Shown in pieces: positions 1 to 18,618 of a stretch of 64,000 nucleotides of DNA; position 1 is the first letter of the stretch, and each line of letters opens with the position of its first letter. This DNA is from a virus: the IMG/VR virus record IMGVR_UViG_3300045988_127310. One strand, 5' to 3'. The notes under the pieces were generated by a model. The model had not been told where the DNA came from. It saw only the letters and a program-made list of their open reading frames with translations, and did not search any database. The position numbers and the translations under genes were made by a program.

Positions 1-760
1 CGGAGATAAGTTCTCTGATATTTCCGAAGTTACTTTATGGCTACTTAGAAGGGCTGCCGGCACAACTTCTATCCCGGAAGGAGAAGAGGTTTATGTAGAG
101 GGAGATGAGGTTAATAGTATTATGACCGATATGGAATCAAGGTACGGGATAGACACCATCAACCACTCACATACGACTAAGGCTATAAGGGATCTTGACG
201 GCGTGTCAGGTTATAAAGTAGAATACGGCTTAACCTTTTTGACATACGATCCTTTTATTAGAATATCCAATCCAAGGAAAGAATCTAAGGCCGCAAAAGA
301 CGAGCCTCGTATATCCGAAGAACCGCTTACTCACATATCAAGGGTGACAACCCCTTATTTCCTGTATGGTGGTGACGAAGCATATACATCTGTTCCGGCT
401 AAGGTAGAACCTATACCGGAGAAGATAATGGGTCGTAATGGTATTAAATTTGGTATGAGTGTAGTCGAGCTAACCAAATTAGGGTACAAAAAAGCTGGTG
501 GAAACTGGATATATAAATTCTATATGAACTCAGGTGTGTATGATTTGTATAATATCAGTACCGGTGAAGCGTTTAGGGCAAAACCGGATCTTGGAGTTAA
601 GATAAGTTCCAGTGCATTCATCCGTTCTTTATCTCAATCTGGTAGAAAAATACAAAATATGATGAGTAACATGAGCCAGGAAGAGATAGATAGGAATAAG
701 AATCTTGTAGAAGGTTCTGATAATTCGGATTCGATAAATGAGTTAAACAAGGAGTGTTGA
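1..760 (+). CDS. hypothetical protein, 5'-partial (frame stays open to the window edge; first ATG at 122)
   Basis: Frame 2 has no stop from position 2 to the stop at 758-760, and its third codon positions are A/T-rich like the rest of the genome. The other frames carry early stops. No recognisable motif. Confidence 0.5.
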   Translation, partial: GDKFSDISEVTLWLLRRAAGTTSIPEGEEVYVEGDEVNSIMTDMESRYGIDTINHSHTTKAIRDLDGVSGYKVEYGLTFLTYDPFIRISNPRKESKAAKDEPRISEEPLTHISRVTTPYFLYGGDEAYTSVPAKVEPIPEKIMGRNGIKFGMSVVELTKLGYKKAGGNWIYKFYMNSGVYDLYNISTGEAFRAKPDLGVKISSSAFIRSLSQSGRKIQNMMSNMSQEEIDRNKNLVEGSDNSDSINELNKEC

Positions 761-762
761 GT

Positions 763-1293
763 ATGAGAAGGAGATTTTTTAATGCTGCGGATAATTTCGT
801 GGGAGGATGTTATAATAAGTTATCCAATGAAGATATAAAAAGGCTTGGAGGGAAAAGACCTTATGTATGTCAGTTTAATAAAATTCATATACATATAGGA
901 CCTGTATTAAAAGATCATGATTCTGATGTTAGTTACATAATGTTTAATAGTGATTGGAATTATGGTGGTTATGATTCTATGGTTTATAATCATAGCAATA
1001 ATGGTATTTTTATATTAGGCGAAAATAAAATTGGTAATATAGAAAATCATATACAGGATCTAACATATTGGTACGAATATGATCCAAACATTAATGAAAA
1101 TTATTGTTATTATTATTATGAAGCTGATAATAGTGGAAATGCTATTAAGTTGAATGGTGAGTTTAGTGATGTTAGCACTGTTTTTAACATTCCCAGTTTG
1201 AAGGTTACCACTCTTCGTGATGGCAGTTTGAGTTTTCCAGAGATTTATATAGAAGGAGTTTGGGATCCGTCATTGTATAAGTCGATTTTATAG
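763..1293 (+). CDS. hypothetical N/Y-rich protein beginning MRRRF
   Basis: The ATG at 763 follows an AAGGAG-like element; the track's upstream start is GTG at 754. The N-terminus MRRRFF is shared with the ORFs at 16681 and 17303. Confidence 0.55.
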   Translation: MRRRFFNAADNFVGGCYNKLSNEDIKRLGGKRPYVCQFNKIHIHIGPVLKDHDSDVSYIMFNSDWNYGGYDSMVYNHSNNGIFILGENKIGNIENHIQDLTYWYEYDPNINENYCYYYYEADNSGNAIKLNGEFSDVSTVFNIPSLKVTTLRDGSLSFPEIYIEGVWDPSLYKSIL

Positions 1294-1318
1294 TTAATTT
1301 TGAAAAAAGTCAATTATT

Positions 1319-3577
1319 ATGGGTGTCAAATGTCAGATAGAAAAAAAGGAAAATGAAATAAAACGGGTTAAGGCTCCTAACGGGGAGCCTTCCGTCCTTT
1401 ACGAAAGTGCTTTAAAAGTATTAGGAAACAGCGAGCGGGCTCTTCAGGTATGGGCTAAGGCTTACACTCCTGGTTTTTTGTCGTATTACGGTCATTGGAA
1501 TAACCCGGCTCCAGGGGAGATGTTTAACACCGATCCCAATGACGAACCTCTTTTAGAAGATGTGCTGTCGTATATGAAGCGTCAGACTTATTTTGCTGAT
1601 CCTTTAACGGCTCAGGATGTTAAGGATGTAAGGGATTTCCTTTTGTCTACTCATTATTTTTTCAATGCGTCTTCATTGTCTAATGCTATTCTCTTCGATT
1701 TTTATGTAGATGGCAGTTTGATACTGAATGAGCAGAAATTAAGGAGATCCGGTTTGTATGATGAAACAGAAATAAGTCGTATTTTATCCGATCCTTCTGT
1801 TTTAAACGAGGTTTCGACTTCCATGAGAAAGTTAATAGATTCTTCTATTAACGAACATGATAGGGAAAAGGATAATTATTTTATGTCTGTTGACTATCAG
1901 TATGGTCCTGTTGTTTACAAGGAGGGAGTGTTTAACCAATTTGGTAAAAAAGTACCATATAATCCTTCTGAGCTTTATTGGGCTATGGGCAAAACAGTAG
2001 CCGGCATAAAAAACTTTTCTGAATTTTCATCTGCTTTTGAATCGTTGAGAAATTCATATCCTGAACTGGTTGAGAAATTCGTTTCTGATAAAGAATTTGC
2101 CGAATCTATGTTTGATGAGTTCTCATCTACGAATAAGATTCCGGTAATAAACATAGAAGGGGATGATGTGGTAGAAGGCAAGAGAAGATCCTTGTCTAAG
2201 CTACAAGATCTGTCTTATTACAATCCTGGCAAAATAGAGTTCCTAAGAGCTCGTATATCGGCTTATTTACATAGGGCTAATGCCGACACCGAATCCGATT
2301 TAAGAAGCATGATATGGGATATAGAAGAGGCTTGTACGTGGTTTGGCATAGATATAATAGGGACATCGGAAACTTATGATGGCACAGAAGAATCTTTGAA
2401 TAAGATAGATAATTTGATGCTGGATCTTGATATTTATGTGGCCAGGCATAATGATGTAAATTATGCTCCAACGCTGGCATCTTCTATAGATGATGTTCTT
2501 GGTGATAGCACAGATTATTATTCTGAATTATTGCCGGAGTATATGGATAATTTGAATATCGTTTATTCTGAATCCGATATAGACCCAGTAGAGGCATTTG
2601 AGAAACATTCATTGCTTAAGGTAGGAGATAATCTATATCAAAGGATCAGCAAAGATGATATTAACGAGATGTATCAAATATCAACAGTGTTAGCCAAGCA
2701 CAACCTAACTCATTTTTCTACTAAAATATATCCTGAATCTTGTTTTAAGAACGGCGTTTTGGATAAAGAGAAAGTACGGAACGTAGATAATAATACGCTC
2801 ATGGATTCCATTAAAAAATACGTCAGATCGTTCATGGATTCTCAGAACACGGAGGACATGATAATGACCAGGATGGCGTTTGGTCACCCGGCGGTACTTG
2901 ACGTTCCTTACGTGGATGTGGATCGGGAGTATAGTCGATACATGAACAAAAAACAAGATAGCGAAAACCCATTATCCTTATTCGATTTATACCAATCTTA
3001 CCTTGACAACAAACTCCATAAAACAAAATTATATGATAATGCCCATAAGTATCTTGACTTCAAACCTGGTCCATCTTTGGGCCTTATTTCTGATGATCCT
3101 GATATTTTGAAATCAATAGAATTATCTTTATCTGGAAAAGACAGGTTGATGTTGTTTGATTATAGCATGACCAGTACCGACCCTTCTTTATCAGAATTGT
3201 TTTATTTGGAGAAGTATGACCCTTCGTATGCCGGGAATGATTTTGAACACTATTTTTACACCAGGCACCCGTATTTGTTAAAAGAAAAATCGGGCCCTAA
3301 TATCGTAGAGCAAGATGGTGTTATAACAGCCGAAGGTATTTATGATAATTTTATAAGAGTAGGTAATAAGATATGGTCTAAAGTAAGCGAGAGTAGTTCC
3401 GGCTCTATCTACCAAAATCTGACAGGAACCGAATCAGAGGTGAAATACGATTCTACTCAGAAGGCTAAGACGGTAGAAACCGATTACGCTCCATACCAAA
3501 ACAGATCTGGCTTGACGCAAGACATGACCGTAAGCAAGCCTGAATTGGATGATCTTAATAAATTGGAATGTAGGTAA
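1319..3577 (+). CDS. large hypothetical protein (752 aa), possibly virion-associated
   Basis: Long uninterrupted ORF followed by the hairpin terminator at 3623-3653. No catalytic motif recognised. Confidence 0.6.
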   Translation: MGVKCQIEKKENEIKRVKAPNGEPSVLYESALKVLGNSERALQVWAKAYTPGFLSYYGHWNNPAPGEMFNTDPNDEPLLEDVLSYMKRQTYFADPLTAQDVKDVRDFLLSTHYFFNASSLSNAILFDFYVDGSLILNEQKLRRSGLYDETEISRILSDPSVLNEVSTSMRKLIDSSINEHDREKDNYFMSVDYQYGPVVYKEGVFNQFGKKVPYNPSELYWAMGKTVAGIKNFSEFSSAFESLRNSYPELVEKFVSDKEFAESMFDEFSSTNKIPVINIEGDDVVEGKRRSLSKLQDLSYYNPGKIEFLRARISAYLHRANADTESDLRSMIWDIEEACTWFGIDIIGTSETYDGTEESLNKIDNLMLDLDIYVARHNDVNYAPTLASSIDDVLGDSTDYYSELLPEYMDNLNIVYSESDIDPVEAFEKHSLLKVGDNLYQRISKDDINEMYQISTVLAKHNLTHFSTKIYPESCFKNGVLDKEKVRNVDNNTLMDSIKKYVRSFMDSQNTEDMIMTRMAFGHPAVLDVPYVDVDREYSRYMNKKQDSENPLSLFDLYQSYLDNKLHKTKLYDNAHKYLDFKPGPSLGLISDDPDILKSIELSLSGKDRLMLFDYSMTSTDPSLSELFYLEKYDPSYAGNDFEHYFYTRHPYLLKEKSGPNIVEQDGVITAEGIYDNFIRVGNKIWSKVSESSSGSIYQNLTGTESEVKYDSTQKAKTVETDYAPYQNRSGLTQDMTVSKPELDDLNKLECR

Positions 3578-3622
3578 TTTTTGTGTACATATATATAGTC
3601 TTTTCATAGTTATAATTTGGGA

Positions 3623-3653
3623 AGTGAGGCTTGTGAAAGTCTCACTTTTCTCA
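3623..3653 (+). terminator. rho-independent terminator-like hairpin (AGTGAG/CTCACT stem plus T-run)
   Basis: 6-bp perfect stem with 12-nt loop, followed by TTTTCTC, 46 nt after the stop of the 752-aa ORF. Confidence 0.5.
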
Positions 3654-4285
3654 TATATGCACGTATATCAATAACATACAAGAAAAGTTAGATTTTCATT
3701 GTTTATGAATTATTTTTATTAAGTTTGCAATATTAGTTTCAGGAAGGGATTATAGAAATAGGAAAAAGTAAGAACCGGACGTAACTAATAACAGTAGGAA
3801 ATGAGAATCAGTACCATCAAACGTAATAACAGCATTCATCTTATGTATAAAAACATTATGAATGATTTAGGTCAATTAAGAACTGTAGTTTCAAAATCCT
3901 ATATTTATAATCTGATACAAAATCAAACCGGATTAAGTATCAGAACTATATCCCATGTCTTGAATCATACAAAAGAACAGGATACAGATTCTTTGCGAAA
4001 GGCATACATTTTCATATATTTGTGTGTTCTTTAGTTTTTAGATTTAAGTTTTTCATGGTATTAGTTTAGATTAGTATAGATCAGGGTTCGCAGTGATGCG
4101 GGCCCTGGTTTGATTTAAAAAGTATTAAAATATTTGCTATTTAAAATCCTGTTCCTATCTTTGCTCCAGAAACAATGAACAACGAGATCCCACCTCTGGT
4201 TGTTTGATGTTGAAAGATATTTTTGGCTCATTAGGGTTTGTCATAGTGGGATCTGACATTCTCTTTTGGGCCTATTTTTTTTATC

Positions 4286-4852
4286 ATGGATAAAGTTTCT
4301 GTTTTTGAAAGTTCGGATTTTGGAGAGCTTAGAATTATTGTAGATCCAAAAGGAGATGTTTGGTTTGTGGCGTCAGATGTGGCTAAATCTCTTGGATATA
4401 TAAATGCTAAAGATGCGGTAAAAAGACATGTAGATGATGATGATTCTATGCTTTTGCAAGTATCTGATAATCAATGGGGCGTAAAACGATCTATATTGAA
4501 AACCAGATATATAGATAGTATAAGAATAATTAATGAATCTGGTTTATATTCTCTTATATTATCTTCAAAATTAGAGTCTGCTAAGAGATTTAAGAAATGG
4601 GTAACATCTGAGGTTCTTCCTTCTATTCGTAAAACAGGAGAATATAAAACAAGTTCCGGTGGAAAGGGAATTTTGGTCCCTGACTTTTCTAATCCGGCAG
4701 ATGCAGCAAGAGCCTGGGCTGATCAGTATGAAGCTGCTCAGAGAGCTATAGCCGAAAAGTCGCAGGCAGAGGCAGAAGCCGGCGTTCTGATGGGACGTAC
4801 ATGGGGTACGGTGGTGGTATTTACGACCATTACGGTATGCATGAGAAGATGA
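4286..4852 (+). CDS. Bro-N (BRO family N-terminal / KilA-N-like) domain protein, antirepressor-like
   Basis: The N-terminal ~110 aa (FxFxxxELRIIVDxxGxxWFVASDVAKSLGY...AVKRHVDDDD) match the Bro-N DNA-binding domain signature. The last ~20 codons look out of frame; see the collinear ORF at 4801. Confidence 0.7.
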   Translation: MDKVSVFESSDFGELRIIVDPKGDVWFVASDVAKSLGYINAKDAVKRHVDDDDSMLLQVSDNQWGVKRSILKTRYIDSIRIINESGLYSLILSSKLESAKRFKKWVTSEVLPSIRKTGEYKTSSGGKGILVPDFSNPADAARAWADQYEAAQRAIAEKSQAEAEAGVLMGRTWGTVVVFTTITVCMRR

Positions 4853-5058
4853 AGGAAATGGAAGAACGCGAAAACGAGCTGGAAGAAAGGGAAAGAAGGC
4901 TTGAAGAGCGCGAACGTCGTCATGAAATGGAGGACCGGGAATACCGGAGGATGGGTTACGAATCCTACCCGACCGATTACTATGGAGACGACAGATACTA
5001 CGGTGACGGACCTCAGATGCGTAGAGGTCGCGGACGTGGCAGAGGTCGTTCTTATTGA
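4801..5058 (+). CDS. highly charged Glu/Arg-rich segment ending in an (RG)4 repeat; possibly a frameshifted continuation of the Bro-N gene
   Basis: Strong triplet periodicity. The frame is open from 4732, overlaps the Bro-N ORF by 52 nt in another frame, and ends at a single TGA at 5056-5058. Confidence 0.35.
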   Translation: MGYGGGIYDHYGMHEKMKEMEERENELEERERRLEERERRHEMEDREYRRMGYESYPTDYYGDDRYYGDGPQMRRGRGRGRGRSY

Positions 5059-5151
5059 GGAGCAGACGCAGAGGATCCAGCTTATCAGAAATATGTAGAT
5101 ACTTACGGCTACCATTTTTCTAATGCTCTCGCTGATGAGGCGGTAAAGAAG

Positions 5152-5445
5152 ATGGTCAACGTCGATGGATCCAAGAGGATCTGGAAGCAGCCGGAAATAA
5201 AAGATATTTTTGAAAAGTGCGGAGCGAAGAAGCCGGATAAAGCGACATGGGGCGATGTCCAATATGTCTTTGCAATGTACTATTCGGATGGTTTTCCGAA
5301 GGTCTTCAAATGTGAGAACGAGTTGGTGAAAGCTACGTTAATGTATTTGGATGATCCGGATGCTCCCGAAGGAGTAGCCTTTATAAGATGGCTTGCCGTG
5401 CAAGATTACCTCGGCGAAAAAATAAACTGGAAGGATCTGACCTGA
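5152..5445 (+). CDS. hypothetical protein; same frame as 4801..5058, separated from it only by one TGA
   Basis: Frame 1 is open from 5059 to 5445 with no stops between the TGA and the ATG at 5152. Followed by an imperfect GC hairpin plus T-run at about 5550-5590. Confidence 0.4.
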   Translation: MVNVDGSKRIWKQPEIKDIFEKCGAKKPDKATWGDVQYVFAMYYSDGFPKVFKCENELVKATLMYLDDPDAPEGVAFIRWLAVQDYLGEKINWKDLT

Positions 5446-5880
5446 GATCCAGACCCAGGTCCTTCCGGTGGTGCGGGAGCCATAGTAAAAAAAATATGAT
5501 TCCCGCATTCCCGTTTTTCCCGTTTGGAAAAAAAAGGAATAAAAATATTATACCGGTCGGCGGGCAATAGAATACCCGTGGCCGGTTTGTTTCACATAAC
5601 TTTTTTTTGACATGAATATAGCACACGAATCTAAATCGAATAAAACCCCATTGTATTTAATAGGAGAGTTGATTGGCGTACCGAATACGGTTATGGACTC
5701 AGCATTGCATGAACTGAAAGATAGAATAGACAAAGACCCTAAATATAAAGATGTTAAAAATTGGCTCGAATCTTTACCCAAGATCTGAACCTATTTTTCC
5801 CAATACCAGGCCCGATGCGATTTTAACGTATCGGGTTTTTATTTTAATTCATATTGTTTTATTTTAAATCTAATTAATTT

Positions 5881-6144
5881 ATGAATGTCGTACTTTTGTT
5901 GAAAAAGTATTTTTTTATGGAAAATAAGGAAGATTACGTTGGTTACGAAGATCAAGAACTGTGTAACCGGTATTACAAAGAGGCTGAAGCCATGAGGCAA
6001 AAGCAGGACTGGTCTCGGCTTAGGGCTGCCCCTGCTCCGGCTAAGGGAACGCCATCGCCCGGCTGGGGTCAGCTTGGACGTGGAAATGAAGTTCGTGTCA
6101 AGTACGTTAGCATCAATTCAGGATTGGGAGGGGATAGGTTATGA
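5881..6144 (+). CDS. hypothetical small protein (early-type cluster)
   Basis: First of a run of ten short rightward ORFs with 4-nt ATGA start/stop overlaps. A second in-frame ATG lies at 5917. The middle section is GC-rich. Confidence 0.4.
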   Translation: MNVVLLLKKYFFMENKEDYVGYEDQELCNRYYKEAEAMRQKQDWSRLRAAPAPAKGTPSPGWGQLGRGNEVRVKYVSINSGLGGDRL

Positions 6145-6359
6145 CTGTAGAAGAATTAGCTAATAAAAGATACGGTGGCGAATTTGTTTTCATGCTTGGT
6201 TATTTGGAAGGTGTAACAAGATTCGTTTTTGAATGTTTCGATCCCAGACCTGATCACGAAGGTAAAAATACTTATATGGCTTCCTATTTTGATAAGCGCA
6301 TCCGTAGAAGAGATGTGGTGGATGTACCGTATTATATGAATGTTTCAACGAAATCATGA
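6141..6359 (+). CDS. hypothetical small protein
   Basis: ATGA overlap with the upstream ORF (translational coupling). Confidence 0.45.
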   Translation: MTVEELANKRYGGEFVFMLGYLEGVTRFVFECFDPRPDHEGKNTYMASYFDKRIRRRDVVDVPYYMNVSTKS

Positions 6360-6559
6360 AAACACTACTTTTTAACATACCTTCTTTCTCTGGTAAGATA
6401 GTTTCTCCTACCTGGATTAAGGCCGTAAGATATTTTCAATCCAGATCGAAGGCAGAAAGAGATTCGTATTGTTCGGTTTGTGGATGTACGGGAGGGTGTA
6501 ACCTGTGCGATGATATAAGTAAATATAGGATTTCAGAACAACTAAAATATTATATATAA
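6356..6559 (+). CDS. hypothetical Cys-rich small protein
   Basis: ATGA overlap with the upstream ORF. Carries a CSVCGCTGGCNLCDD cysteine cluster. Confidence 0.45.
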   Translation: MKTLLFNIPSFSGKIVSPTWIKAVRYFQSRSKAERDSYCSVCGCTGGCNLCDDISKYRISEQLKYYI

Positions 6560-6560
6560 T

Positions 6561-7193
6561 ATGGTTAGAATCGCATATTTCGGAACCGATGGCTGCCCCG
6601 GTCATCACGTTATTCCAATACGAGGTAGATTCACAGAAGAGGATATTAAGGTAATAGAATCTGTAGATTGTGATGATTTCTATAAGGTGTTTGACGTCAT
6701 GCGTTTTAAGATAGCTGAGTTTAAAGGATGGACGATATTGGGAATCCCGGCAAGCTTAGACGATCATAGACCTGGAAGCAAAACCGTTATCTTCATAGAG
6801 GGTAAAGCTAACGAAGCTGATTTTATGGAAGTCATACAAGAGTATTCTTTTCTTAAAAATAATGTAAAGAAACTTGCCGAATTGTATCATGATGGAGAAT
6901 GGTTTGCTACTGGTAAATTGAATCAAGATCCGCCTAATAAGGAACAGTTTCAATTTGCGTTAGACAAGGATGATATTATTAACATGATTAGGGGAGTCGA
7001 TTTAGATCCTTATTCTGATGTGGCGAATGAAATGGAGAAAATCGGATTGGGATCATCATCTGATTCTTCATATGAGGGTCCCATATGGTCTTGGTTTGTT
7101 AACAAAGTAGAACTTTGGCAGAAGAATAATGTATGGGATAGTTTCTCCGCTGAGTTTTTGTGGGGTTTGTATTGTAAGATAAAGAAAGTATAA
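6561..7193 (+). CDS. hypothetical protein (210 aa)
   Basis: Starts 2 nt after the previous stop. No recognisable motif. Confidence 0.55.
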   Translation: MVRIAYFGTDGCPGHHVIPIRGRFTEEDIKVIESVDCDDFYKVFDVMRFKIAEFKGWTILGIPASLDDHRPGSKTVIFIEGKANEADFMEVIQEYSFLKNNVKKLAELYHDGEWFATGKLNQDPPNKEQFQFALDKDDIINMIRGVDLDPYSDVANEMEKIGLGSSSDSSYEGPIWSWFVNKVELWQKNNVWDSFSAEFLWGLYCKIKKV

Positions 7194-7216
7194 TAACAAC
7201 TAATTTAAAATAAATC

Positions 7217-8080
7217 ATGGAATTAAAGGATTTTAAAGATGTAATTAGAGTGATGACAAAAGAAGAGTTCGAATCAGCAATCAACGAAGATATTAAATTC
7301 GTTGAAATATTTAAGCATTTTTTTAAACATGATGATGATGCGAGGATAATAGAACACGTAAAGTCAGTGTTAGAAGCATCAGTAGATTACTTCTATCCTA
7401 ATCATCCTGAAGTAGAATTTGAAAAAGATTTTAATATACAATACGATGTCAATAAGATCTTGAACAAATACGGCCACACCGAAATGGGTCTGTATAAAAT
7501 ACAGCTCTATGTAGAGAAGATTTTGGGTAGTATTCAAAACAAGAAGCCTGTAGACGTGGGAGAAGTCTCTGACGGATACCACACTTTCAATGAATTGTAT
7601 CGGTATCGCATGTTGTATAACGCTGCCTTCTTTAATCTATTAGCCAGAAGCGGACAGGTTGAAGTTTGCAAATCAAGGAGACACAGCGACGGAGAAAAAT
7701 GCTTCGGTTCTGATGATTGGTTTATTGTGATGGCGATCCTACCTACCGGTCAGGTATCTAATCACTATGAAAGCAAATACTGGGATTTGTTTGATGTTCC
7801 TGAAAGAGAGACCGCTTTCGAATACGATGGCCATACATCAAATGAAGCTGCCGACAGACTTAAAAAGTATCTCAAACTGCCTCGTCGTGGCATGACATTC
7901 GAACAGGCTTTAGAACGGCTTAAATTAGGTAGTAAGATAAAAAGAATCGATTGGGGTAAAAAGTATATCTGTATATTTGACGTAAATATATTGATGGTAG
8001 ATACAGGTCAAAAAGTAGCATCAAATTGGAATCCAACCGAACATGATATTATGTCTAATGACTGGGAGATTGCGGGATGA
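7217..8080 (+). CDS. fusion protein with a C-terminal DUF2829/Tad2-like domain (candidate anti-Thoeris signal sponge) and an uncharacterised ~225-aa N-terminal region
   Basis: The C-terminal ~60 aa (MTFEQALERLKLGSKIKRIDWGKK...WNPTEHDIMSNDWEI) fit the M-x-F-x-E-A-L...K-x-G-x-K-[VI]-x-R-x-x-W ... W-x-P/S-x-x-D-x-x-x-x-D-W pattern I associate with DUF2829/Tad2. This is recall only, not a database hit. Confidence 0.5.
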   Translation: MELKDFKDVIRVMTKEEFESAINEDIKFVEIFKHFFKHDDDARIIEHVKSVLEASVDYFYPNHPEVEFEKDFNIQYDVNKILNKYGHTEMGLYKIQLYVEKILGSIQNKKPVDVGEVSDGYHTFNELYRYRMLYNAAFFNLLARSGQVEVCKSRRHSDGEKCFGSDDWFIVMAILPTGQVSNHYESKYWDLFDVPERETAFEYDGHTSNEAADRLKKYLKLPRRGMTFEQALERLKLGSKIKRIDWGKKYICIFDVNILMVDTGQKVASNWNPTEHDIMSNDWEIAG

Positions 8081-8352
8081 GTTTGTTTGTATGTTCAAAA
8101 TGTGGCTGTATAGATAATACAGCCACATCATATTACTGGGCTCTTATAAGACCTTGTAAGAATCGTATTTACGATAAGTCGCTAAAGGGATATGAAGGCA
8201 AGCCTCTTTGTTCTGAATGTGCCGCTATTGAATATAGTAAGGGAGGCGAAGTGGTGGTAGTTCCTGGAACGTGGCACGGTAAGTTCAAGAAAGAATGGCC
8301 TACTGAAGAAGAAAAGAAGCATATTGGTAAAAACGGTATTTTAAATTATTGA
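8077..8352 (+). CDS. zinc-ribbon small protein
   Basis: Two CxxC pairs (CSKCGC...CSEC). ATGA overlap with the upstream gene. Confidence 0.5.
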   Translation: MSLFVCSKCGCIDNTATSYYWALIRPCKNRIYDKSLKGYEGKPLCSECAAIEYSKGGEVVVVPGTWHGKFKKEWPTEEEKKHIGKNGILNY

Positions 8353-8355
8353 TTT

Positions 8356-8661
8356 ATGTGTGATAAGGAAATTGTTGTATGTGCAGCTATATGGGTTCAA
8401 GATCACAAGAACAAGCCTCACGGTCCAGTAAATATACCATCTGGAACCGTATTTTGTGGATTGAGACACTGTTCCATAATATCGCAACTTGCGGCATACG
8501 GAATAGCTCATAAAAACCGCAGTGTTCAAGGATTTTTGACAAGCAAGAATCGGTTTTTAACAAGAGAGGAAGCGTCTGAACTTGTTAGAAACAATAATCA
8601 GGAGATGGTGGTAGATAGAAATGCCATTAGAGAACAGTTGTATTCAGAAGATTTGTATTAA
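8356..8661 (+). CDS. hypothetical small protein
   Basis: Colinear ORF with no overlapping competitor. Confidence 0.5.
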   Translation: MCDKEIVVCAAIWVQDHKNKPHGPVNIPSGTVFCGLRHCSIISQLAAYGIAHKNRSVQGFLTSKNRFLTREEASELVRNNNQEMVVDRNAIREQLYSEDLY

Positions 8662-8678
8662 CTAAAAAATAAAACAAT

Positions 8679-9029
8679 ATGGGATTTATAATCAAAAAGT
8701 CAATATTTTATGATATGATGGACGGCAATCAATTAAAGTATGAATTTGACAACAGGGATTTAGATCATATCACATTTAAAGGTGATGGTAAAGAATCTTT
8801 TTCATTTAACAGAGCACTTGTTGAAAATTTAATTGAGACATTTGAAACCATGCATGATATATATTCCGATAATTACAAGCTTAAGGTTTATACTGGTAAT
8901 TGCATAATTCAATTGAGCGAAGATTCAAAGGACTTAAGTAAATCCTTTTTTGACGTATATGATAAAGATGAAATGAAAATGATATACGCAATAAATATCA
9001 GTATCTTGAAAGAAATGTTTGTCATATGA
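8679..9029 (+). CDS. hypothetical small protein
   Basis: Colinear ORF. Confidence 0.5.
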   Translation: MGFIIKKSIFYDMMDGNQLKYEFDNRDLDHITFKGDGKESFSFNRALVENLIETFETMHDIYSDNYKLKVYTGNCIIQLSEDSKDLSKSFFDVYDKDEMKMIYAINISILKEMFVI

Positions 9030-9223
9030 TCACCAAGCAAGATATACAAGCAGCAACATCGTATATTTTCCGAAGCAGTTTTGTCTCGGAGGACCAGGCA
9101 AGGAAAGCAATGGTAAGAGCCGGCAATAACGCTACCAAGAACCTCGTCAAGACCTTTAGAGGCAAGTTGTTCAAGAAAGCTTTTGAAAGAGCCCGTAGAG
9201 GAAAGGATATCAGTTTTTTTTGA
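9026..9223 (+). CDS. hypothetical basic small protein
   Basis: ATGA overlap with the upstream ORF. Lys/Arg-rich. Confidence 0.4.
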   Translation: MITKQDIQAATSYIFRSSFVSEDQARKAMVRAGNNATKNLVKTFRGKLFKKAFERARRGKDISFF

Positions 9224-9332
9224 AAGACAGGAAAAAGAAAGTGGTTTCAACTTTCTTTACAATCCTAATAATGGTCGTATGCAAAGCGGTCATATTATAA
9301 TAGATGGAATTGATCTGTTTAAACAAATAATT

Positions 9333-9503
9333 CATGAAAGGTAAAAAAGTTGATATTCGTTTAGGTAGAGGTCTGGCGAATCAGATTAAGATAAACAAAA
9401 CCATTCCAGTGTCTCATAAACCAAAAGAAGAACGTCGAATGATGTTTATTTGTGGTGATGATATTGCTTCTCTTATAAAGCGGTTTGAAAATGAATCAAA
9501 GTA
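9333..9503 (+). CDS. possible 56-aa ORF below the ORF-track size cut-off
   Basis: Runs from the ATG at 9333 to the TAA at 9501-9503. A hairpin with T-run follows at about 9508-9540. Confidence 0.25.
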
Positions 9504-9553
9504 ATATAAAGTCGGGCATGTGTCTTGTCTGACTTTTTTTATATATTTGTGGC

Positions 9554-9877
9554 ATGGCAAGAGGTTATTATTGGATACCGCAGACAGATGAAACGTTAAA
9601 TGGCAGAAGCTATTACGTGGCTAAGATAGTAGGGGATATCACGTTTGATACTAAACGAAAAAGAATCGTATTTCAAGCTGATAGGTATTTCCCTGTAGGA
9701 TCTGTTTTCCATTTTACGCACAATTGCTTCAATTATATCATAACTTGCCGACTTCGTAAGCCGGGGCTTTGGTTTGAAGCCAGGAGAGAGGATTCGGGCC
9801 CTATTTGCCCTGAAGATATTGAGCGCTTTGAATCGGGAAGGTTTATACACCGAGATGGGTACATGCATTACATATAA
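9554..9877 (+). CDS. hypothetical protein (107 aa)
   Basis: ORF followed by a strong terminator. Confidence 0.5.
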   Translation: MARGYYWIPQTDETLNGRSYYVAKIVGDITFDTKRKRIVFQADRYFPVGSVFHFTHNCFNYIITCRLRKPGLWFEARREDSGPICPEDIERFESGRFIHRDGYMHYI

Positions 9878-9929
9878 GCTGAACTTGACGATTTTTCGTC
9901 AGATTATAATTTTTTTTCATATCATTTTT

Positions 9930-9968
9930 AAGCCATCAGACTTAGGAGTTAGATGGCTTTATTTTTTA
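9930..9968 (+). terminator. rho-independent terminator (AAGCCATC/GATGGCTT stem plus T-run)
   Basis: 8-bp perfect stem and 14-nt loop, followed by TTTATTTTTTAT. Confidence 0.6.
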
Positions 9969-9988
9969 TGATATGCTTGATTTTTAAC

Positions 9989-9996
9989 TACCTTTG
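9989..9996 (+). promoter_or_regulatory. Bacteroidetes-type -7 promoter element TAccTTTG upstream of the giant ORF
   Basis: Matches the TAnnTTTG -7 consensus of Bacteroides sigma-AB promoters, 24 nt before the ATG at 10020. No exact TTTG -33 partner was seen. Confidence 0.25.
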
Positions 9997-10019
9997 TCTC
10001 ATAACAAAAATGTTTTATC

Positions 10020-13000
10020 ATGGTATCAACGTGTATTATTAAAAGAGATAATAAAAAGAAAGTTGTTTCTGTCTCTACCAGATCAGGGGACAGGTCTATG
10101 TTGTTTGATAAAATAGCATCTGTTCCTCTTATGGAGAACAGGGAGCGGGCTACTACTGTTTTTAAAACCGTATTTTCCAACAAGTTCTTAAAGGCTTTTG
10201 GCGACTGGAGAAAGAGAGTGCCTATCAACAAACAGGCTTATAATAAGGTAAAATCCAACATCGATCTTATCCCAGAAGCCTATAGAGAAAGGGTGCTGGA
10301 TAAGGCTTCTAAGATGAGTAATCCTGTTCTTGTATCAAAATCAGATGCAACTTATGGGATTCAAGAATCAGGCTTCGGATTCTATAGCCAAGATCTGGGT
10401 GATAATATTATGTTGGTGGATGCTATGATCCCATCAAGTATTTCCGTACCGGAAGAACCAGGAATAGACGCCGGGCAGTATTTACAAGATGCTATATTTT
10501 CGGACTTCACTCCCGTATCTGTGGTACAGGATAAGGGTGTTAATTATATGGTTATAAAAGACGGTCTTAAGATATTTAGCCCAGAAGAGCTACCAGAAAC
10601 AGATTCTAATCCTGTGGGTGTAACGTATCAGACTGGAGAGCCTCGTTTGTTTTTCATGAACGATCGTAGTCAATTATTTGAAGATTACGGAGAAGCTCTT
10701 CGCTCTGGCGGGAATGATATCAGAATAGGGTTCTTATCAGGCACCGTTCAAGAATCTACCGTGGATGGCGTGGCAGACATTACTTACAAAGCTGGAAAGT
10801 ATGTTCTTAATAATCCCAAATCTTTTATACCGGTCATGACCGCTTCTGCTTCTACTTCTTTATCAACAAAAGGTGGTATAATTAACTACCTTATAAAGAA
10901 AGGTCTTTTGTCCGGATCTAAGATATTCGATCCTGAAACAAGAAGCTATTATCTTACAGGAGAAGGTCATACAGGACAAATTAGACTTTTCAATTCAGCC
11001 TTATCATACACCGAGCTCCGTAATCATTTTGGTTCCGATGTTTCCATGAACGACCAAGGTATGATAACCATAAGCTCGTTGGATAACAGTAAGGTAACTA
11101 TGAGACTCGCCACCGGAGGAACGGAAAGGATTAGTAGGGAACAGATAAAGAACGATCTTAAGTCAGGAAGATACAATGAATTGGACGCCAAGTACGATCA
11201 TTTTGATGCGCTTGTAGTTTCATTCATATTAGAAGATAACGATCTTTATGCTGATACTAAAGCTAAGATCGTATCAGATTATAGCAGGCAGGAACGTGAC
11301 CAACGAAATTCTATTGTCGAGATACTGAAAACGCTTGGCGTTAGTGTCATAGGTATGACCGACTATATAGAGAAGTACCAAACCAAATACGGGCACGAAC
11401 CTTCTGCTAAGGCATTGGCGGATATTGCTAATAACGTAATAGCAGTTGGTGAAGATGCTACTTTATCTGATTTAGTAGAAGAAACAGCCCACTTTCTTGT
11501 AGAGGCATACAGAGATCAGAATGCTGTTGAGGCTGTTCTGCAAGATGTAGAAGGTACGGAAGAGTGGAACCAGTATGCAGGTCAGTATTATAATACATAC
11601 GGTAAAGCGTATGAAGGAGCTGAGCTTGATAATGCTGTTAGGAGAGAAATTCTTGGAAAGATCCTCGCCAGGGAGATGCAGGCCGGCACAGCACAGGCGC
11701 CGGTAGAGCCCACCTCCTTCCTGGGGCGCGTCCGGCAGCTTTTCTCTGGAATCGTAAGCTGGCTTAAATCAGCTTTATCAACCCAAAGACAAGATTTGAA
11801 TAACGTTATTAAAAACATTCGTGATCTTGCCATTACTGACATAGATAAAGGATTTGACACCTCTCTGTTAAAGGATAATGACTTTACATTATACTCCCTT
11901 TCTTCTATGAACAAGAACAAGTTTCTTGAGTCTAAGATCAGATCACTAAGAAAAACATTAAGAGACTTACGTCAGATAAGCTCTGATAGGGCTGTAACTA
12001 CGTCTATGACCCTTGCGCAGCTTAAGACCATAGAAGATAAGATAAATAAGGTAGAGACCGAAATAGACAAGAATGAGATGGCGGCTGCCATGAACAGCAT
12101 GATCTCCACAGCCGAAGCTCAGGTCAGATACTTAAGCAATGTGGTGAACACCATCCTTCATGGTGATACCAAAGACGGCAAGCTTCACTTCAACACCAAT
12201 GATCGAAAGAACGTAGATATTATCAACAATCAGGTTCTTCCGATCATGAACGATCTTCGAGGATATATCCGTAACAGAAGTACCGAATTTGATGAACGTG
12301 AAAAGCAGGATTATACAAATAGGATCAACACCGTCATTGCCGACATCAATGGTATTCAGTCTGATATTAAATCAGTACAAGACCTTGATGAAAGTACGTT
12401 GCTTGATAAGTTAATGAACGAACTTCATGTGCCGGCAGATAAGGTAAAGAGAGTAAAAGAATTTTTCGACAAGGTTCAACACGATGTTTCTTGGATAAGT
12501 AGGTGGTTTGGTATATTAGAGCATTCTTCCAGTCCGTTCAATAACGCTCTTGGAGCTATGATTGCCAAAGACAATTACAATGCGATGGTGAATGCCCAGC
12601 CCGCCATATCCGATTTCCTGGCATATGCGAAAAAGCATGGTTTTAACAAATCTGAATTTGAAAAACTGCTTCAGAAAGTAGACGGCAAAACTTCTAATTA
12701 CCTTCGTAGTGCTCTTGATATGGCTAAATACGATCGTAATAAGAAGCTGGCGCAGATGCGAGCGTTTGCGACTGCCATGAACATAGAGATATCAGAAGAA
12801 GAAATTGGTGATGTGGTTGACAATAACCGTAATTACGTATTTAAAAGAGAAGTAGTTGACAAGGATGGAAATACGGTTACTGAAAACGCTAAATTCAAAC
12901 CATCGTCTGATAGGGTTAATACCGATATTTTTACCATCGAGCAGGAAAAGATCTATACGGAACAGATGGAAAAGTGGGATGCTGAAAATTCGGAACTGGA

Positions 13001-16000
13001 ATTTAGTGAAAGTTATGCCACAAGAATGGAATCCATATACAAAAAGGCTGAAGAAGAATTAGGGCATCCAGTTTCTCAAACAACCAAAGAATACCTTAAT
13101 GCTCTATCCAGGCAAAAACGGATACTGAGGCAGCCTTTTATTGATAGCGGTGGTAATTTTGATGAAGTTGCCTATTTTAAAAGCAGCAATTACGAAGAAG
13201 AAGGACTGCTTCGTAAACAACGTAAAGAAGCAGCTTCAGAATACATATATGTAGGAACCAGGAGAGTGGAAAAAACCGGCGACCAACTTAAGATGGCCAA
13301 AGAAATACAAGCTATAAATGAAGTTTGGAGAAAGGAATCAAATAATGTTACTAATGCCGTATCAGAATCGTTTTTGCAAAAATTGAGAGCGATTCAGAGC
13401 GAATCAGGAGGGGAAGCTGCATTGAGAACGCTTATGTTGGGTGGTCACCTGTCATTCAACGATCGGTTTTGGAATGATATAGAATCGGAACAGTCAGCGC
13501 GCACCGAATCAAATAACAAGGCTTCGTATCTCAAAATGGCGCATGATATCATTAGTTCTACGACAAGCGATAGAGATGCGACTGACGTGGATTCTATTGT
13601 GAAAGATATAGAAAAAAATAAGGCTATTATCAAGGAAATAATCGGAAACAATCGCGATGTGGCTGATATCGGAGAAATTAACGAAGCAACATTTACCTCA
13701 TCCGAAAGAGATGCTTTTAGGGCCGCATCTGAAGCTATTGAAGCCGATTACGCTATTTTGATAGATTATGCTAAGATGGTGGGTCTTGAAGATATTGATA
13801 AGTACCTTACTAAAAGCAATAAGGCTGAAAACGAAGTAAATCAGTCTTATTTAAATGCTCTTGCTGACTCCAAGGAAGTGGAATGGAAGTTCGTACAACG
13901 TCATACTACGGCGAAGAAAGCAAAAAGGATTCAGGCTTTAAGGGATAAGCTGTTTAAGGCTGCTGATAACCGATATCTGTTTACCGTATCTGAAACCAAC
14001 TACCTGTCAGAAAAGCTTGGTATAAGCAAAGAATTAGACGGTAGAGATTTTAGGAATGCTGTTAATGCTAAGATGGCCAGCTTGTTTTTAAATAATACAA
14101 GAGAAGAGGGTATAGAAGCTGACATAAAAGCGGGCATAGAAGAGGCCAATGCTATTGTTAATGAATTTGCCAGGAGCCAGGTCTTTTCGTACTATAAACG
14201 CATGGCGCCTACTGGATATGCGGCTATGATCGACAAAATCGGTCGAGGTGAGATAGATGTGGCGCAGATGGTTAAGGACGTACAAAACGGTACATCCACC
14301 CAAGATTATGGCATGGATATATCGTACCTTTCTTTCGATCCTGCAAGGGCATGGGTGGCTGAATCTGAAGCCGAAAATAGCGGCCGTAATCCTGATTATG
14401 TAAAAGATCATGGGTATGGTCATCGAATGCCTAAGAAAAGCCTGTATCGTGATGAATCGTATTTCAATGACTTTGGCATCAAGTATGATGTTGACGGTAA
14501 TGAGGTTGCTACTAAAAATGTAGAGCAGTGGAATATGATTCAAAAACTCAAGGAAATAAAAAGACAATCCCTTGATCTATACAAAGAGCAGAGCCCGAAC
14601 CTGTATGCTATTCCACAGATATCAAAACAAGACATAGAACGTATAGAAGGATTGGGTATTAACTTCAAAAATACGGTTCGTAATTTTGTATCAGATCTGT
14701 GCCTGGACAGAGTAGACGATTCTCTATATGGTAAGACCAGGCAAGGAGAAGTGTATGACCCGGAAGACAGACTTAGGTCTATACCTAAATACTACATATA
14801 TGAGTTGGAGAACCAAGATGATGTATCTCACGATTTTGGCTACTCTTATTCGATGCTTATGATGCAGTCATCGTTATACAACGAAAAGCAGAAGTCTATA
14901 GAGCTCGCTCAAGGACTGGAACAGATGTTACTGAACAAGCAATTTGAAGGCGGTAAGAAGGCTGAAGCAACCCAAGCATATCAGATGTTCAGAGACTTCT
15001 TCAACGATCATTATTATGGCATTAGGATGAACACCAAAAGACTTACGGTGAACATCGGAGGATATACGGTAGACCTTACAAGAATTATGATGGCTGTTGA
15101 AAGATTTATGTCGGTCATGAACTTGGCACTGTCTCCGTTTGTGGCAGCTACCGGCGCCTTAACAGGTCATATCAACCTCATCATGGAATCTGCCGTAGGA
15201 CAGTATATAAGCAAAGACTCCCTTAAATACGCATCGGCTGAATTTTCACGCCTTGCTCCATCTTGTATAGCAGAAACCGGAGACATAGATAGGAAAAGTA
15301 AATTATATGTCATAGGTGAGAGAATGGGGATATTCAATATCCGAAATCGTATGTATGGTGCCGGATACAATAGAGCGGCCAGGACCTTAATGCGTTCGCC
15401 TATGTATGCTTTTATGGAAATCCTGAACTACCCTCTTGATCCGCAGGTTATGATTGCTACTATGGACAATGTTCGTTATTACAAAGGCCGGTTCTACACG
15501 CTCCAAGATTTCAAGATGGAAAAAGAACGCAATAAAGAACAGAGTACCATAAAAAGAGAATGGAACGCATTAAAAGATCGTACTTTATGGAGTATGGTAG
15601 ACGTCGTGGATGGGAAGGTGGTTGTAAAGCCCGGATCAGGTGTTACTGTTGAGGAAGTTGAAACCCAGATGGCTATAACCAGGAATCAAGTCCGTAGCTT
15701 GTCGCAGATATGTAACGGATCTTTGAATGAAGAAAACCGAACTGCTGCATCGCGCAACTGGATAGCCAGGTTCATGACCGCCCACCGAGGATGGTTGGTG
15801 CTGGCGGCTCAACGTCTGTGGAAAAGACGTGGCTTCAATTTCCAGACAATGCAAGAAGAGGAAGGGTTGTCAATTACGTTAAAGAATATGATAGCCAAAA
15901 CATTTAGCCTGGCTTCCGAGTCTGGTATGAAAAACATCATAGATGCCTGGAATGAAAATAAAGACAATATGAATGAGGTAGAAAAAACCAATCTCAAACG

Positions 16001-16466
16001 TCTCAGTGTCTATGCCGGCACGTTCCTTATCATGCAGGCCGTATCTATGCTTCTTGCCGGATGGCGTGATGATGATGAAAACGAAGAAAGTTGGCTTACT
16101 CAATTCGGATCCTATGTCGGATTCAGAACCATAAACGAAATAGCTTCACAGATGCCGTTTATTATGGAGCTTAACGTGGTAGATATCATTAACGATCCGT
16201 TTGTTATGGGGCGGAAACTGAAGGATCTTACCGATCTTAGGAATTATTCACTTGATAAAGTAACATCCGGCACATACAAAGGAGAGTCTAAGTTATTTAG
16301 GCAACTCGCCAAACAGACGTTTATCAAACAATGGTATAATATCAAGACGCCGGAAGACGTAGCGTGCGCTTATAATTGGTGGCAGCAGACGAACAACAAG
16401 TCAATGATGTTCTTCATCGGCGCCACTCCTGATTCGGAAGGTGATGAGGATACAAGCTACAAATAG
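10020..16466 (+). CDS. giant protein (2148 aa) with long coiled-coil stretches and a C-terminal hydrophobic helix; tape-measure-like or ejected-cargo-like; function unassigned
   Basis: Single uninterrupted ORF bracketed by terminators. It has coiled-coil-like heptad segments and a C-terminal hydrophobic helix (VYAGTFLIMQAVSMLLAGW). No polymerase, terminase or portal motif was recognised. Confidence 0.75.
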   Translation: MVSTCIIKRDNKKKVVSVSTRSGDRSMLFDKIASVPLMENRERATTVFKTVFSNKFLKAFGDWRKRVPINKQAYNKVKSNIDLIPEAYRERVLDKASKMSNPVLVSKSDATYGIQESGFGFYSQDLGDNIMLVDAMIPSSISVPEEPGIDAGQYLQDAIFSDFTPVSVVQDKGVNYMVIKDGLKIFSPEELPETDSNPVGVTYQTGEPRLFFMNDRSQLFEDYGEALRSGGNDIRIGFLSGTVQESTVDGVADITYKAGKYVLNNPKSFIPVMTASASTSLSTKGGIINYLIKKGLLSGSKIFDPETRSYYLTGEGHTGQIRLFNSALSYTELRNHFGSDVSMNDQGMITISSLDNSKVTMRLATGGTERISREQIKNDLKSGRYNELDAKYDHFDALVVSFILEDNDLYADTKAKIVSDYSRQERDQRNSIVEILKTLGVSVIGMTDYIEKYQTKYGHEPSAKALADIANNVIAVGEDATLSDLVEETAHFLVEAYRDQNAVEAVLQDVEGTEEWNQYAGQYYNTYGKAYEGAELDNAVRREILGKILAREMQAGTAQAPVEPTSFLGRVRQLFSGIVSWLKSALSTQRQDLNNVIKNIRDLAITDIDKGFDTSLLKDNDFTLYSLSSMNKNKFLESKIRSLRKTLRDLRQISSDRAVTTSMTLAQLKTIEDKINKVETEIDKNEMAAAMNSMISTAEAQVRYLSNVVNTILHGDTKDGKLHFNTNDRKNVDIINNQVLPIMNDLRGYIRNRSTEFDEREKQDYTNRINTVIADINGIQSDIKSVQDLDESTLLDKLMNELHVPADKVKRVKEFFDKVQHDVSWISRWFGILEHSSSPFNNALGAMIAKDNYNAMVNAQPAISDFLAYAKKHGFNKSEFEKLLQKVDGKTSNYLRSALDMAKYDRNKKLAQMRAFATAMNIEISEEEIGDVVDNNRNYVFKREVVDKDGNTVTENAKFKPSSDRVNTDIFTIEQEKIYTEQMEKWDAENSELEFSESYATRMESIYKKAEEELGHPVSQTTKEYLNALSRQKRILRQPFIDSGGNFDEVAYFKSSNYEEEGLLRKQRKEAASEYIYVGTRRVEKTGDQLKMAKEIQAINEVWRKESNNVTNAVSESFLQKLRAIQSESGGEAALRTLMLGGHLSFNDRFWNDIESEQSARTESNNKASYLKMAHDIISSTTSDRDATDVDSIVKDIEKNKAIIKEIIGNNRDVADIGEINEATFTSSERDAFRAASEAIEADYAILIDYAKMVGLEDIDKYLTKSNKAENEVNQSYLNALADSKEVEWKFVQRHTTAKKAKRIQALRDKLFKAADNRYLFTVSETNYLSEKLGISKELDGRDFRNAVNAKMASLFLNNTREEGIEADIKAGIEEANAIVNEFARSQVFSYYKRMAPTGYAAMIDKIGRGEIDVAQMVKDVQNGTSTQDYGMDISYLSFDPARAWVAESEAENSGRNPDYVKDHGYGHRMPKKSLYRDESYFNDFGIKYDVDGNEVATKNVEQWNMIQKLKEIKRQSLDLYKEQSPNLYAIPQISKQDIERIEGLGINFKNTVRNFVSDLCLDRVDDSLYGKTRQGEVYDPEDRLRSIPKYYIYELENQDDVSHDFGYSYSMLMMQSSLYNEKQKSIELAQGLEQMLLNKQFEGGKKAEATQAYQMFRDFFNDHYYGIRMNTKRLTVNIGGYTVDLTRIMMAVERFMSVMNLALSPFVAATGALTGHINLIMESAVGQYISKDSLKYASAEFSRLAPSCIAETGDIDRKSKLYVIGERMGIFNIRNRMYGAGYNRAARTLMRSPMYAFMEILNYPLDPQVMIATMDNVRYYKGRFYTLQDFKMEKERNKEQSTIKREWNALKDRTLWSMVDVVDGKVVVKPGSGVTVEEVETQMAITRNQVRSLSQICNGSLNEENRTAASRNWIARFMTAHRGWLVLAAQRLWKRRGFNFQTMQEEEGLSITLKNMIAKTFSLASESGMKNIIDAWNENKDNMNEVEKTNLKRLSVYAGTFLIMQAVSMLLAGWRDDDENEESWLTQFGSYVGFRTINEIASQMPFIMELNVVDIINDPFVMGRKLKDLTDLRNYSLDKVTSGTYKGESKLFRQLAKQTFIKQWYNIKTPEDVACAYNWWQQTNNKSMMFFIGATPDSEGDEDTSYK

Positions 16467-16591
16467 ACGAAAAATATCAGACTTGCATTGTTTTTGTATG
16501 ATTCCAATATGCTATATTAGCATCGTCAAAGAGTAGATTGTACGTTTTTTGTTCTTACTTGAAAGGTTATGTAGGTTTATTTTTTCTGAAA

Positions 16592-16634
16592 TTGTTTTCT
16601 TACCGGTTCTCAGTCAGAGATGATAGGGAACCGG
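16592..16634 (+). terminator. rho-independent terminator (ACCGGTTC/GAACCGGT stem plus T-run)
   Basis: 8-bp perfect stem followed by TTTCTTTTAT, 126 nt after the giant ORF stop. It overlaps the track's nominal start (16620) of the next ORF. Confidence 0.6.
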
Positions 16635-16680
16635 TTTCTTTTATGTTGTCAATTATTGCTATCTTGCAAACAAAAAATCA

Positions 16681-17111
16681 TGAGACGAAGATTTCAAATA
16701 GGGATGGGGGTAAATCCCTCGCTTATAATCAATAAAGGCATATACATCCAACATGTAGATGGAGGATTATATACAAAAGAAAATTGGTCTAATAAAGGAT
16801 ATTCCAATGATCTATGCAATGGAATAGCTCTTGTAGATAAAGTGTGTTTTGTTATAGCCACCGAATATATTGGCACATTTCGTTGGGGTAAGAATGGAGA
16901 AATAGACAATATATTTGCACAAGATAGTTCTCATATTGGAACTATTAAAAAGGATTATTGGGGGCGTGAAAATCAGAATGCGTATCTTGAATATGATACC
17001 AGTAATACAGATTACGCTTTTAATAAAGCTAATAGCTATTTATTTAAAAATGGTCAAAATGGATATGTAGGTGGCGCCGGAGAGTTTTTTTTTGATATCA
17101 TTGTATGCTAA
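16681..17111 (+). CDS. hypothetical protein beginning MRRRF
   Basis: The ATG at 16681 lies after the terminator. The N-terminus is MRRRFQ. Gly/Asn/Tyr-rich, with a possible beta-rich binding module. Confidence 0.5.
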
Positions 17112-17302
17112 TGAAATAAACGAATGTCTTTTAATGGTAGGAGGTACGATAATGAGTAATAAAATGTGGACATCCACTCAATCTACACAATTTACCTATT
17201 CGTGGTATTATGATATAAACATCCAAGGAGATCATTTGGATACAAGTACAAGGAGTAATCCACGTTATGTCCGCCCCTTTACCGAATTAATTTTATGAAA
17301 TT

Positions 17303-18040: not shown

Positions 18041-18129
18041 CAACAATCCCCAACCGTACGCCTATTGTATGGTTGGGGATTGTTGTAGTTACCATCTTTT
18101 CTTATATAAGCAGAACATGAAATAAGTTT

Positions 18130-18618
18130 CTAAGCATTAACTTCATGACCTTCCCTATCTGTGAAAACTAAACCAATACCTTCTATGATATGTCCTACTA
18201 CAGGAGCTTTGTCAAATTCCTCCTTCGTAGCCCAAGTAGCATTATCAGGCATCAGATCCTTGAATGCGTCCGAAACATCACCTTGACACCAGCAGTTATT
18301 TGATGTAACAACGCCTTTCCCTTCGATATTGATATACATTTTTCTTCCATCACATCCAAGGCTGTTCCATCCGCTCGGTACGTTTTCCACCATAGGCTTA
18401 AGCACCCAGCTTACACCGTCTATCCTAACCCATCCAGGATCGTCTTTGTGCTTGTCGTACAAGTTTTGCCAAAAAGAGCATTCGTAGCACCATCCCCTGT
18501 CTTCCATGACAGTTCTTATCTCACTCCTTTCAAATCCATCTGCATCCATCGTGTGCGGAGAATGAGGCTGGTGAGGGGTGCCACATTTTGGACATACGAG
18601 TTTTAAATTATTTTTCAT
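18130..18618 (-). CDS. hypothetical protein with N-terminal zinc ribbon (CPKCG)
   Basis: ORF convergent with the rightward block. Confidence 0.5.
   Translation of the reverse strand: MKNNLKLVCPKCGTPHQPHSPHTMDADGFERSEIRTVMEDRGWCYECSFWQNLYDKHKDDPGWVRIDGVSWVLKPMVENVPSGWNSLGCDGRKMYINIEGKGVVTSNNCWCQGDVSDAFKDLMPDNATWATKEEFDKAPVVGHIIEGIGLVFTDREGHEVNA

Follow-up and report, generated by a model that had tools for sequence, protein, structure and literature searches.

We analysed a 64,000-nt stretch of viral DNA (IMG/VR record IMGVR_UViG_3300045988_127310), referred to here as the window, and focused on one ORF in a run of small genes. The original prediction, made from the letters alone, had described this ORF as a 287-aa protein with a Tad2/DUF2829-like C-terminus, and this description held: residues 226-285 of the product of 7217..8080 read MTFEQALERLKLGSKIKRIDWGKKYICIF..WNPTEHDIMSNDWEI. 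The protein and its surroundings comprise the following features.

7217..8080, + strand: WDGH-Tad2 ORF (ATG start, 287 codons plus stop), encoding an N-terminal module, a WDGH domain and a minimal Tad2-like module
7217..7546, + strand: variable helical N-terminal module, aa 1-110, without a family match
7318..7324, + strand: T7 homopolymer, codons 34-36, at which variants of +/-1 nt truncate the ORF at codon 36
7559..7867, + strand: WDGH domain, aa 115-217, with the motif Y-D-G-H at aa 203-206
7892..8071, + strand: minimal Tad2-like module, aa 226-285, predicted as alpha1, beta1, beta2, a tight turn, beta3, beta4, alpha3, beta5
8077..8352, + strand: 91-aa gene downstream of WDGH-Tad2 (phrog_11861, no assigned function), whose start overlaps the WDGH-Tad2 stop (ATGA, 8077-8080)
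8356..8661, + strand: 101-aa gene (phrog_839) whose homologue is the T4_Y16D (PF26092) portion of the deletion-fusion proteins P0104 and P0075
5808..5838, + strand: terminator-like hairpin (stem of 12 bp) preceding the small-gene run
9508..9536, + strand: terminator-like hairpin (stem of 11 bp) at the end of the small-gene run 5881..9504
10020..16466, + strand: gene for a 2148-aa virion structural protein (phrog_37651, E=2e-77), given as context outside the protein

The small-gene run 5881..9504 is densely packed. In agreement with the predicted run of coupled genes, the stop/start overlap at 8077-8080 is accompanied by three other 4-nt ATGA overlaps in the same run (at 6141, 6356 and 9026). 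As the two hairpins bracket the run, it resembles a unit transcribed apart from the giant gene; this arrangement is compatible with such a unit and carries no information on timing. The cluster had also been called 'early', which the strand layout does not support. A + strand block (122..18040) contains WDGH-Tad2 along with numerous small genes and the gene for the giant virion protein, whereas the - strand block (18.1-63.4 kb) is the replication module, with helicases, a DnaB-like helicase and exonucleases at 27-41 kb. The WDGH-Tad2 gene and the replication module are thus on opposite strands, while the virion gene, 2 kb downstream, runs in the same direction as WDGH-Tad2. The virion/accessory block and the replication block converge at 18040-18130, with a gap of 89 nt.

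Several other ORFs of the + strand block deserve mention. Within the operon-like run, positions 6356-6559 encode a 67-aa Cys-rich ORF (CSVCGCTGGCNLCDD) that has no family match and is present in 20 of 75 related loci. A Bro-N/anti-repressor-like gene at 4286-4852 was found in only 25 of the 75, and is overlapped by an ORF at 4801-5058 whose highly charged peptide contains ERE repeats and is RG-rich. One relative (P0007) has a Bro-N domain joined directly to the entire N-module-WDGH-Tad2 protein.

The C-terminal module matched Pfam PF11195 (Tad2-like, formerly DUF2829) with a score of 42.5 bits (cut-off 25; E=9.5e-11), over profile positions 1-72 of 73 and residues 226-285. As this score is far above chance, the Tad2-like observation is real. 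The predicted structure of the module is confident (pLDDT about 90) and displays the Tad2 core fold, that is, an N-terminal helix, an antiparallel sheet and alpha3 before the last strand; it superposes on the Tad2 core at 1.3-1.4 Å. Compared with the known Tad2 proteins (SPO1 Gp34.65, ModTad2, HgmTad2/AcrIIA7 and SptTad2), it shares the profile, the core fold, the Trp pair, the W-x-P-[ST]-x-x-D motif and the C-terminal DW. The known proteins are free-standing and measure about 90-104 aa, whereas here Tad2 is the C-terminal module of a 287-aa protein.

We then compared the ligand pocket with the SPO1 Tad2-gcADPR structure, in which W25, N26, I63, T65, D67, H71, W73, S76, T78 and D79 contact the ligand. 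Four of these contacts are identical in the window protein (W25/W246, T65/T263, W73/W271 and D79/D277), two are conservative (I63/V261 and S76/T274) and four are changed (N26/G247, D67/Q265, H71/S269 and T78/H276). The pocket thus keeps its stacking Trp pair and its ribose-binding Asp but has lost the phosphate-binding Asn: all solved Tad2 proteins read GWNGK where the window protein reads DWGKK, so that W-N-G has become W-G-K. The phosphate contact is N26 in SPO1 Tad2 and N22 in HgmTad2, and the W21A/N22A mutant of HgmTad2 shows markedly lower binding. The beta2-beta3 insertion is absent as well, being replaced by a two-residue turn, with residues 254-257 forming a direct hairpin. Helix alpha2 of the V-shaped dimer of SPO1 Tad2 lies in this insertion (residues 36-59), and the cyclic-dinucleotide pocket of HgmTad2 and SptTad2 is built from it (residues 32-72); unlike these proteins, the window module has neither the alpha2 dimer interface nor that pocket. 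Tad2 specificity is known to vary, with gcADPR bound by SPO1 Tad2, His-ADPR by ModTad2 and cyclic dinucleotides, via the insertion, by HgmTad2.

WDGH-Tad2 proteins fall into classes that differ in this region. The canonical W-N-G class, with the long insertion, has 14 copies and a W-to-W spacing of 57, the W-K-N class has 25 copies with a spacing of 33, and the W-G-K class, to which the window belongs, has 31 copies with spacings of 22-26. Family-wide, the spacings are graded (57, 33, 28, 26 and 22), and the window, with 22, lies at the short end. W-x-P-[ST]-x-x-D and the terminal DW are kept by every class. The window module is therefore the most reduced variant of the series, down to a 62-residue C-terminal core.

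The remainder of the protein had been predicted as a single 225-aa N-terminal domain without a known family. This stood for residues 1-110, but residues 115-217 are a WDGH domain (PF25311), matched with E=2.1e-36 and 124.6 bits against a cut-off of 27, over profile positions 1-96 of 97. The same region matches PHROGs 3392, 3769 and 21846, none of which has an assigned function. An exhaustive HMMER search with residues 105-220 against 1.84 billion cluster representatives yielded 3799 clusters at E<=1e-3, 418 of them at E<=1e-30; the best matches were 60-77% identical and lay at variable positions in proteins of 137-638 aa. A profile search of a 5.8-billion-protein set returned at least 7996 proteins, and its top matches were stand-alone proteins of 116-203 aa with PF25311 alone. 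Since the domain occurs both at variable positions and by itself, it is autonomous; most family members stand alone, without a second domain, in contrast to the fusion described here. We also found WDGH in 198 annotated phage genomes, always as 'hypothetical protein', including Listeria A511/P100-like, Bacillus cereus group, Salmonella P22-like, Streptococcus, Lactococcus, Klebsiella and other phages.

Fifteen residues are invariant in the family (D119, G120, H122, F124, E126, R131, Y134, N140, K152, S153, H156, Q179, N182, H183 and Y184), and D204, G205 and H206 occur in at least 90% of WDGH proteins. The window protein has all family-invariant residues; its eponymous Trp is replaced by Tyr203. 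The four invariant His together with acidic residues could form a site for metal binding or catalysis, or else a tight pocket for a ligand. When the WDGH alignment was used in a PDB sequence-profile search, no match rose above noise (E of 6 or worse), and neither a solved structure nor a structural analogue of the family was found, the fold matches being non-significant. Assignment to the 2H-phosphoesterases, HD, HNH/His-Me, PD-(D/E)xK or H-Y-E ADP-ribosyltransferase families was considered and rejected, as motif spacing and secondary structure, compared by eye, did not fit and the searches gave no support. Our literature search on WDGH/PF25311 and its PHROGs returned nothing relevant on function.

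The genomic positions of WDGH genes are diverse. In the P22-like phages BTP1, epsilon34 and ST64T the gene lies between the coat and adaptor genes (in Salmonella phage BTP1, gp06 at L002 3821-4381, between the coat and head-tail adaptor genes), and in the pneumococcal Streptococcus phage phiARI0378_21 (L004 3426-3821) it is flanked by the genes for the portal and a minor capsid protein. The BTP1 and pneumococcal positions are moron-like slots in late morphogenesis operons, unlike the small accessory arrays found elsewhere, where WDGH sits beside dUTPase, YqaJ, YopX, Rep or methylase genes. No recurrent functional partner of stand-alone WDGH genes emerged from the gene neighbourhoods examined. 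In Bacillus phage vB_BanS_Nate (gp134/gp135, L003 2848-4048), a NADAR-family gene begins within a stand-alone WDGH gene. Members of this family are enzymes that process ADP-ribose, and the overlap may be either another tie to ADP-ribose biology or a coincidence. IS605 OrfB/TnpB-like genes (Cas12f1-like_TNB) were seen a few kb from WDGH in two unrelated phage contigs (L005 10994-12166 and L092 1662-2846).

The N-terminal module (aa 1-110) had no match in Pfam, NCBIfam or PADLOC. The whole WDGH-Tad2 gene likewise gave no NCBIfam or PADLOC match, and PADLOC gave none for five neighbours. The module was modelled as helices at low confidence (pLDDT 32-75), and aa ~70-110 are missing from a 246-aa class and from the homologue in phage csAssE-Sib. 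Its T7 run carries an indel in 12 of 80 related loci (L016, L021, L055-L057, L059, L060, L062-L065 and L074). An additional T yields CAT TTT TTT TAA and thus a stop after 36 aa; in these variants, gene callers start shorter proteins of about 200-224 aa just downstream. Because three contigs contain a compensating indel 8-11 nt downstream of the run, at least some of this variation is real. The run could be an on/off or N-terminus-switching site, or the variation could reflect sequencing noise.

With regard to the source, the region shares 95% identity with csAssE-Sib, a human-gut phage of 151 kb whose classification stops at Caudoviricetes and whose homologue is annotated only as 'protein of unknown function (DUF2829)'. 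The annotated relatives of the 2148-aa virion protein are limited to the ~145-kb Cellulophaga phages phi4:1/phi17:2 and, farther off, human-gut Crassvirales. The source is a gut phage of about 150 kb of the Bacteroidota-infecting type, to which the label 'crAss-like' would apply only as a loose relationship. A literature search for the csAssE phage found nothing on it, and one for Tad2 in the crAss context gave only fungal TAD2 papers and unrelated work.

The gene belongs to a variable part of these genomes. The giant virion gene lies about 2 kb downstream in all 75 related IMG/VR loci compared, and several of the small neighbour genes are kept in only 20-66 of them. In a 146-kb relative (L096), both WDGH-Tad2 and the following 91-aa gene are absent; at L096 5001-5579 the N-terminal module of about 110 aa is joined in frame to T4_Y16D (PF26092), the homologue of 8356..8661. 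This loss and fusion, together with the variable neighbours, mark the accessory region as a mosaic and WDGH-Tad2 as a cassette with which the phage can dispense. Different C-terminal cargoes may be exchanged on the N-terminal module, which would then serve as a common adaptor.

To assess selection on the gene, we retrieved 80 related IMG/VR loci, in 65 of which the ORF is open; 59 of these belong to the Tad2 class of the window and were used for a pooled Nei-Gojobori analysis. The N-terminal module showed a dN/dS of 0.29 (34 codons with amino acid changes and 15 with only synonymous ones) and WDGH one of 0.15 (12 and 14 codons, respectively), whereas the Tad2 module reached 2.07 (pN 0.0125, pS 0.0061; 15 codons and 1). 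The contrast between Tad2 and WDGH was significant (Fisher p=0.002), and the value for the Tad2 module on its own is compatible with neutrality (p=0.075). Purifying selection on this module was not detectable among the 59 close relatives. W246, W271, N272, P273, D277 and W283 never vary among the related-locus copies. In 6 of the 65 copies another Tad2 class is carried on the same WDGH, pointing to cassette swapping. These results hint that the mini-Tad2 is either relaxing or diversifying and that WDGH is the constrained core; since divergence is low, they are a hint rather than proof.

Taken with the loss of the insertion and the replacement of the Asn, the lack of detectable purifying selection makes sponge activity of the window module plausible but uncertain. 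The proposal of an immune-signal sponge with an extra module is partly supported.

We also asked how often WDGH and Tad2 are joined. Only 4 of 148 diverse WDGH representatives carried Tad2, so the fusion is a minority architecture and most WDGH proteins have no link to a sponge. Within this phage group the fusion is abundant: most of the 120 best matches have both domains, and some 90% clusters stand for hundreds to thousands of sequences. Several relatives of the window protein are WDGH-only, and others are triple fusions of WDGH, Sequestin and Tad2. In an unrelated phage of about 40 kb, WDGH, Sequestin (PF21825) and a canonical Tad2 occur in a single protein. WDGH is thus recurrently fused to two proven sponge families. 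Its other partners, mostly single cases, are Bro-N, sigma-70 region 4, Myb-like, FaeA-like, YccV-like and GNAT domains, and this assortment calls for caution on the sponge link.

These fusions resemble previously described fused viral sponges, namely Acb4-Tad2 of Pasteurella phage Pm86, Tad2-Sequestin and Sequestin-Acb4 (PMC12265669). Sequestin was found as a 3'cADPR sponge through its fusion to Tad2 and Acb4, and the Acb4-Tad2 fusion blocks both Thoeris and CBASS (PMC12265669). The likeness consists in Tad2 and another small phage domain sharing one polypeptide; the difference is that the partner in the window, WDGH, is only a candidate for ligand binding, and is larger and far more conserved than the known sponges. 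WDGH (PF25311) is not mentioned in that study (PMC12265669) or in the other literature searched. As WDGH is fused to Tad2 and Sequestin in the way that Sequestin is to Tad2 and Acb4, it is a candidate anti-signalling domain. An analogy can also be proposed between WDGH and Acb1 or Apyc1, which are small phage accessory proteins with invariant His/Asp acting on immune nucleotides. Acb1 is a 2H phosphoesterase and Apyc1 has a metallo-beta-lactamase fold; both destroy immune signals.

Our tentative preference, held with somewhat less than even confidence, is that the gene encodes a modular counter-defence protein directed against nucleotide immune signalling, in which the mini-Tad2 would trap an ADP-ribose-derived TIR signal and WDGH would add a second activity. 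In this scheme, copies of the minimal Tad2 would associate through helix alpha1, as in Tad2, creating pockets between subunits, with W246, W271, T274 and D277 as lining residues. The signal, of the gcADPR type or a relative, would be caught there, and K248/K249 might take the phosphate contact normally made by the lost Asn. The WDGH domain, with about 105 residues and its invariant His/Asp/Glu/Lys/Arg/Asn cluster, would act against the same kind of host process, either as a ligand pocket or as a hydrolase. Several lines of evidence speak against this scheme. The Asn is replaced by Gly247, the equivalents of D67, H71 and T78 are changed and the insertion is missing; the Tad2 module has 15 codons with amino acid changes against 1, Tad2 accompanies WDGH in few of its representatives, and WDGH genes occur in late morphogenesis operons. 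In addition, PADLOC gave no match, and the literature searched offers no support for a function of WDGH.

The main alternative is that WDGH would be the sole working part, with an activity unrelated to sequestration, and that the mini-Tad2 would be what is left of an ancestral fusion with a canonical Tad2, now decaying or put to another use and kept at most as an oligomerisation tail or binding a different ligand. The loss of both the W-N-G Asn and the entire beta2-beta3 insertion, the graded Tad2 lengths with the window at the short end, the WDGH-only relatives and a dN/dS of about 2 next to 0.15 in the same gene all point in this direction. We nevertheless regard this explanation as rather unlikely: in the 65 open copies the frame continues through the Tad2 module and all truncations fall at the N-terminal T7 run, the six residues listed above are invariant, the module is confidently modelled and superposes on Tad2 at 1.3 Å, and short-range dN/dS is noisy at pS=0.006. 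Alternatively, WDGH might be a nucleic-acid-binding, regulatory or host-takeover domain, with the fusion serving phage gene regulation or a housekeeping-like accessory role. This appears improbable to us, because the fold matches are non-significant and the DNA-binding partners are single cases, whereas the Tad2 and Sequestin fusions recur, in unrelated phages, and the dispensability and variability of the gene are typical of counter-defence cargo. That the Tad2-like module is an AcrIIA7-type anti-CRISPR against type II CRISPR-Cas is very improbable. The link to AcrIIA7 is shared DUF2829 membership only; Cas9 binding has never been demonstrated for the DUF2829 protein concerned, nor has its mechanism been determined, AcrIIA7 itself (HgmTad2) is a gcADPR/cyclic-dinucleotide sponge, and the window module has no counterpart of the insertion, which accounts for much of AcrIIA7.

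As to novelty, the Tad2 call is correct and was already implied by public annotation; since the closest GenBank record labels this half DUF2829, it adds little. In the literature searched, we found no description of WDGH combined with a minimal Tad2, of the stepwise Tad2 reduction or of WDGH as a candidate in counter-defence. The reduction of Tad2 to a 62-residue core could define a minimal sponge, or show decay or re-specialisation. WDGH is among the most conserved and abundant uncharacterised phage domains measured here, and its covalent link to two proven sponges offers a concrete, cheap hypothesis for its function. It is possible, if doubtful, that WDGH (PF25311) represents a new and very widespread counter-defence family with a fold absent among solved structures, which would neutralise nucleotide signalling as a sponge or, in view of the invariant His/Asp/Glu/Lys cluster, as a signal-degrading enzyme. 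If this were true, it would supply an annotation for thousands of phage genes in one step.
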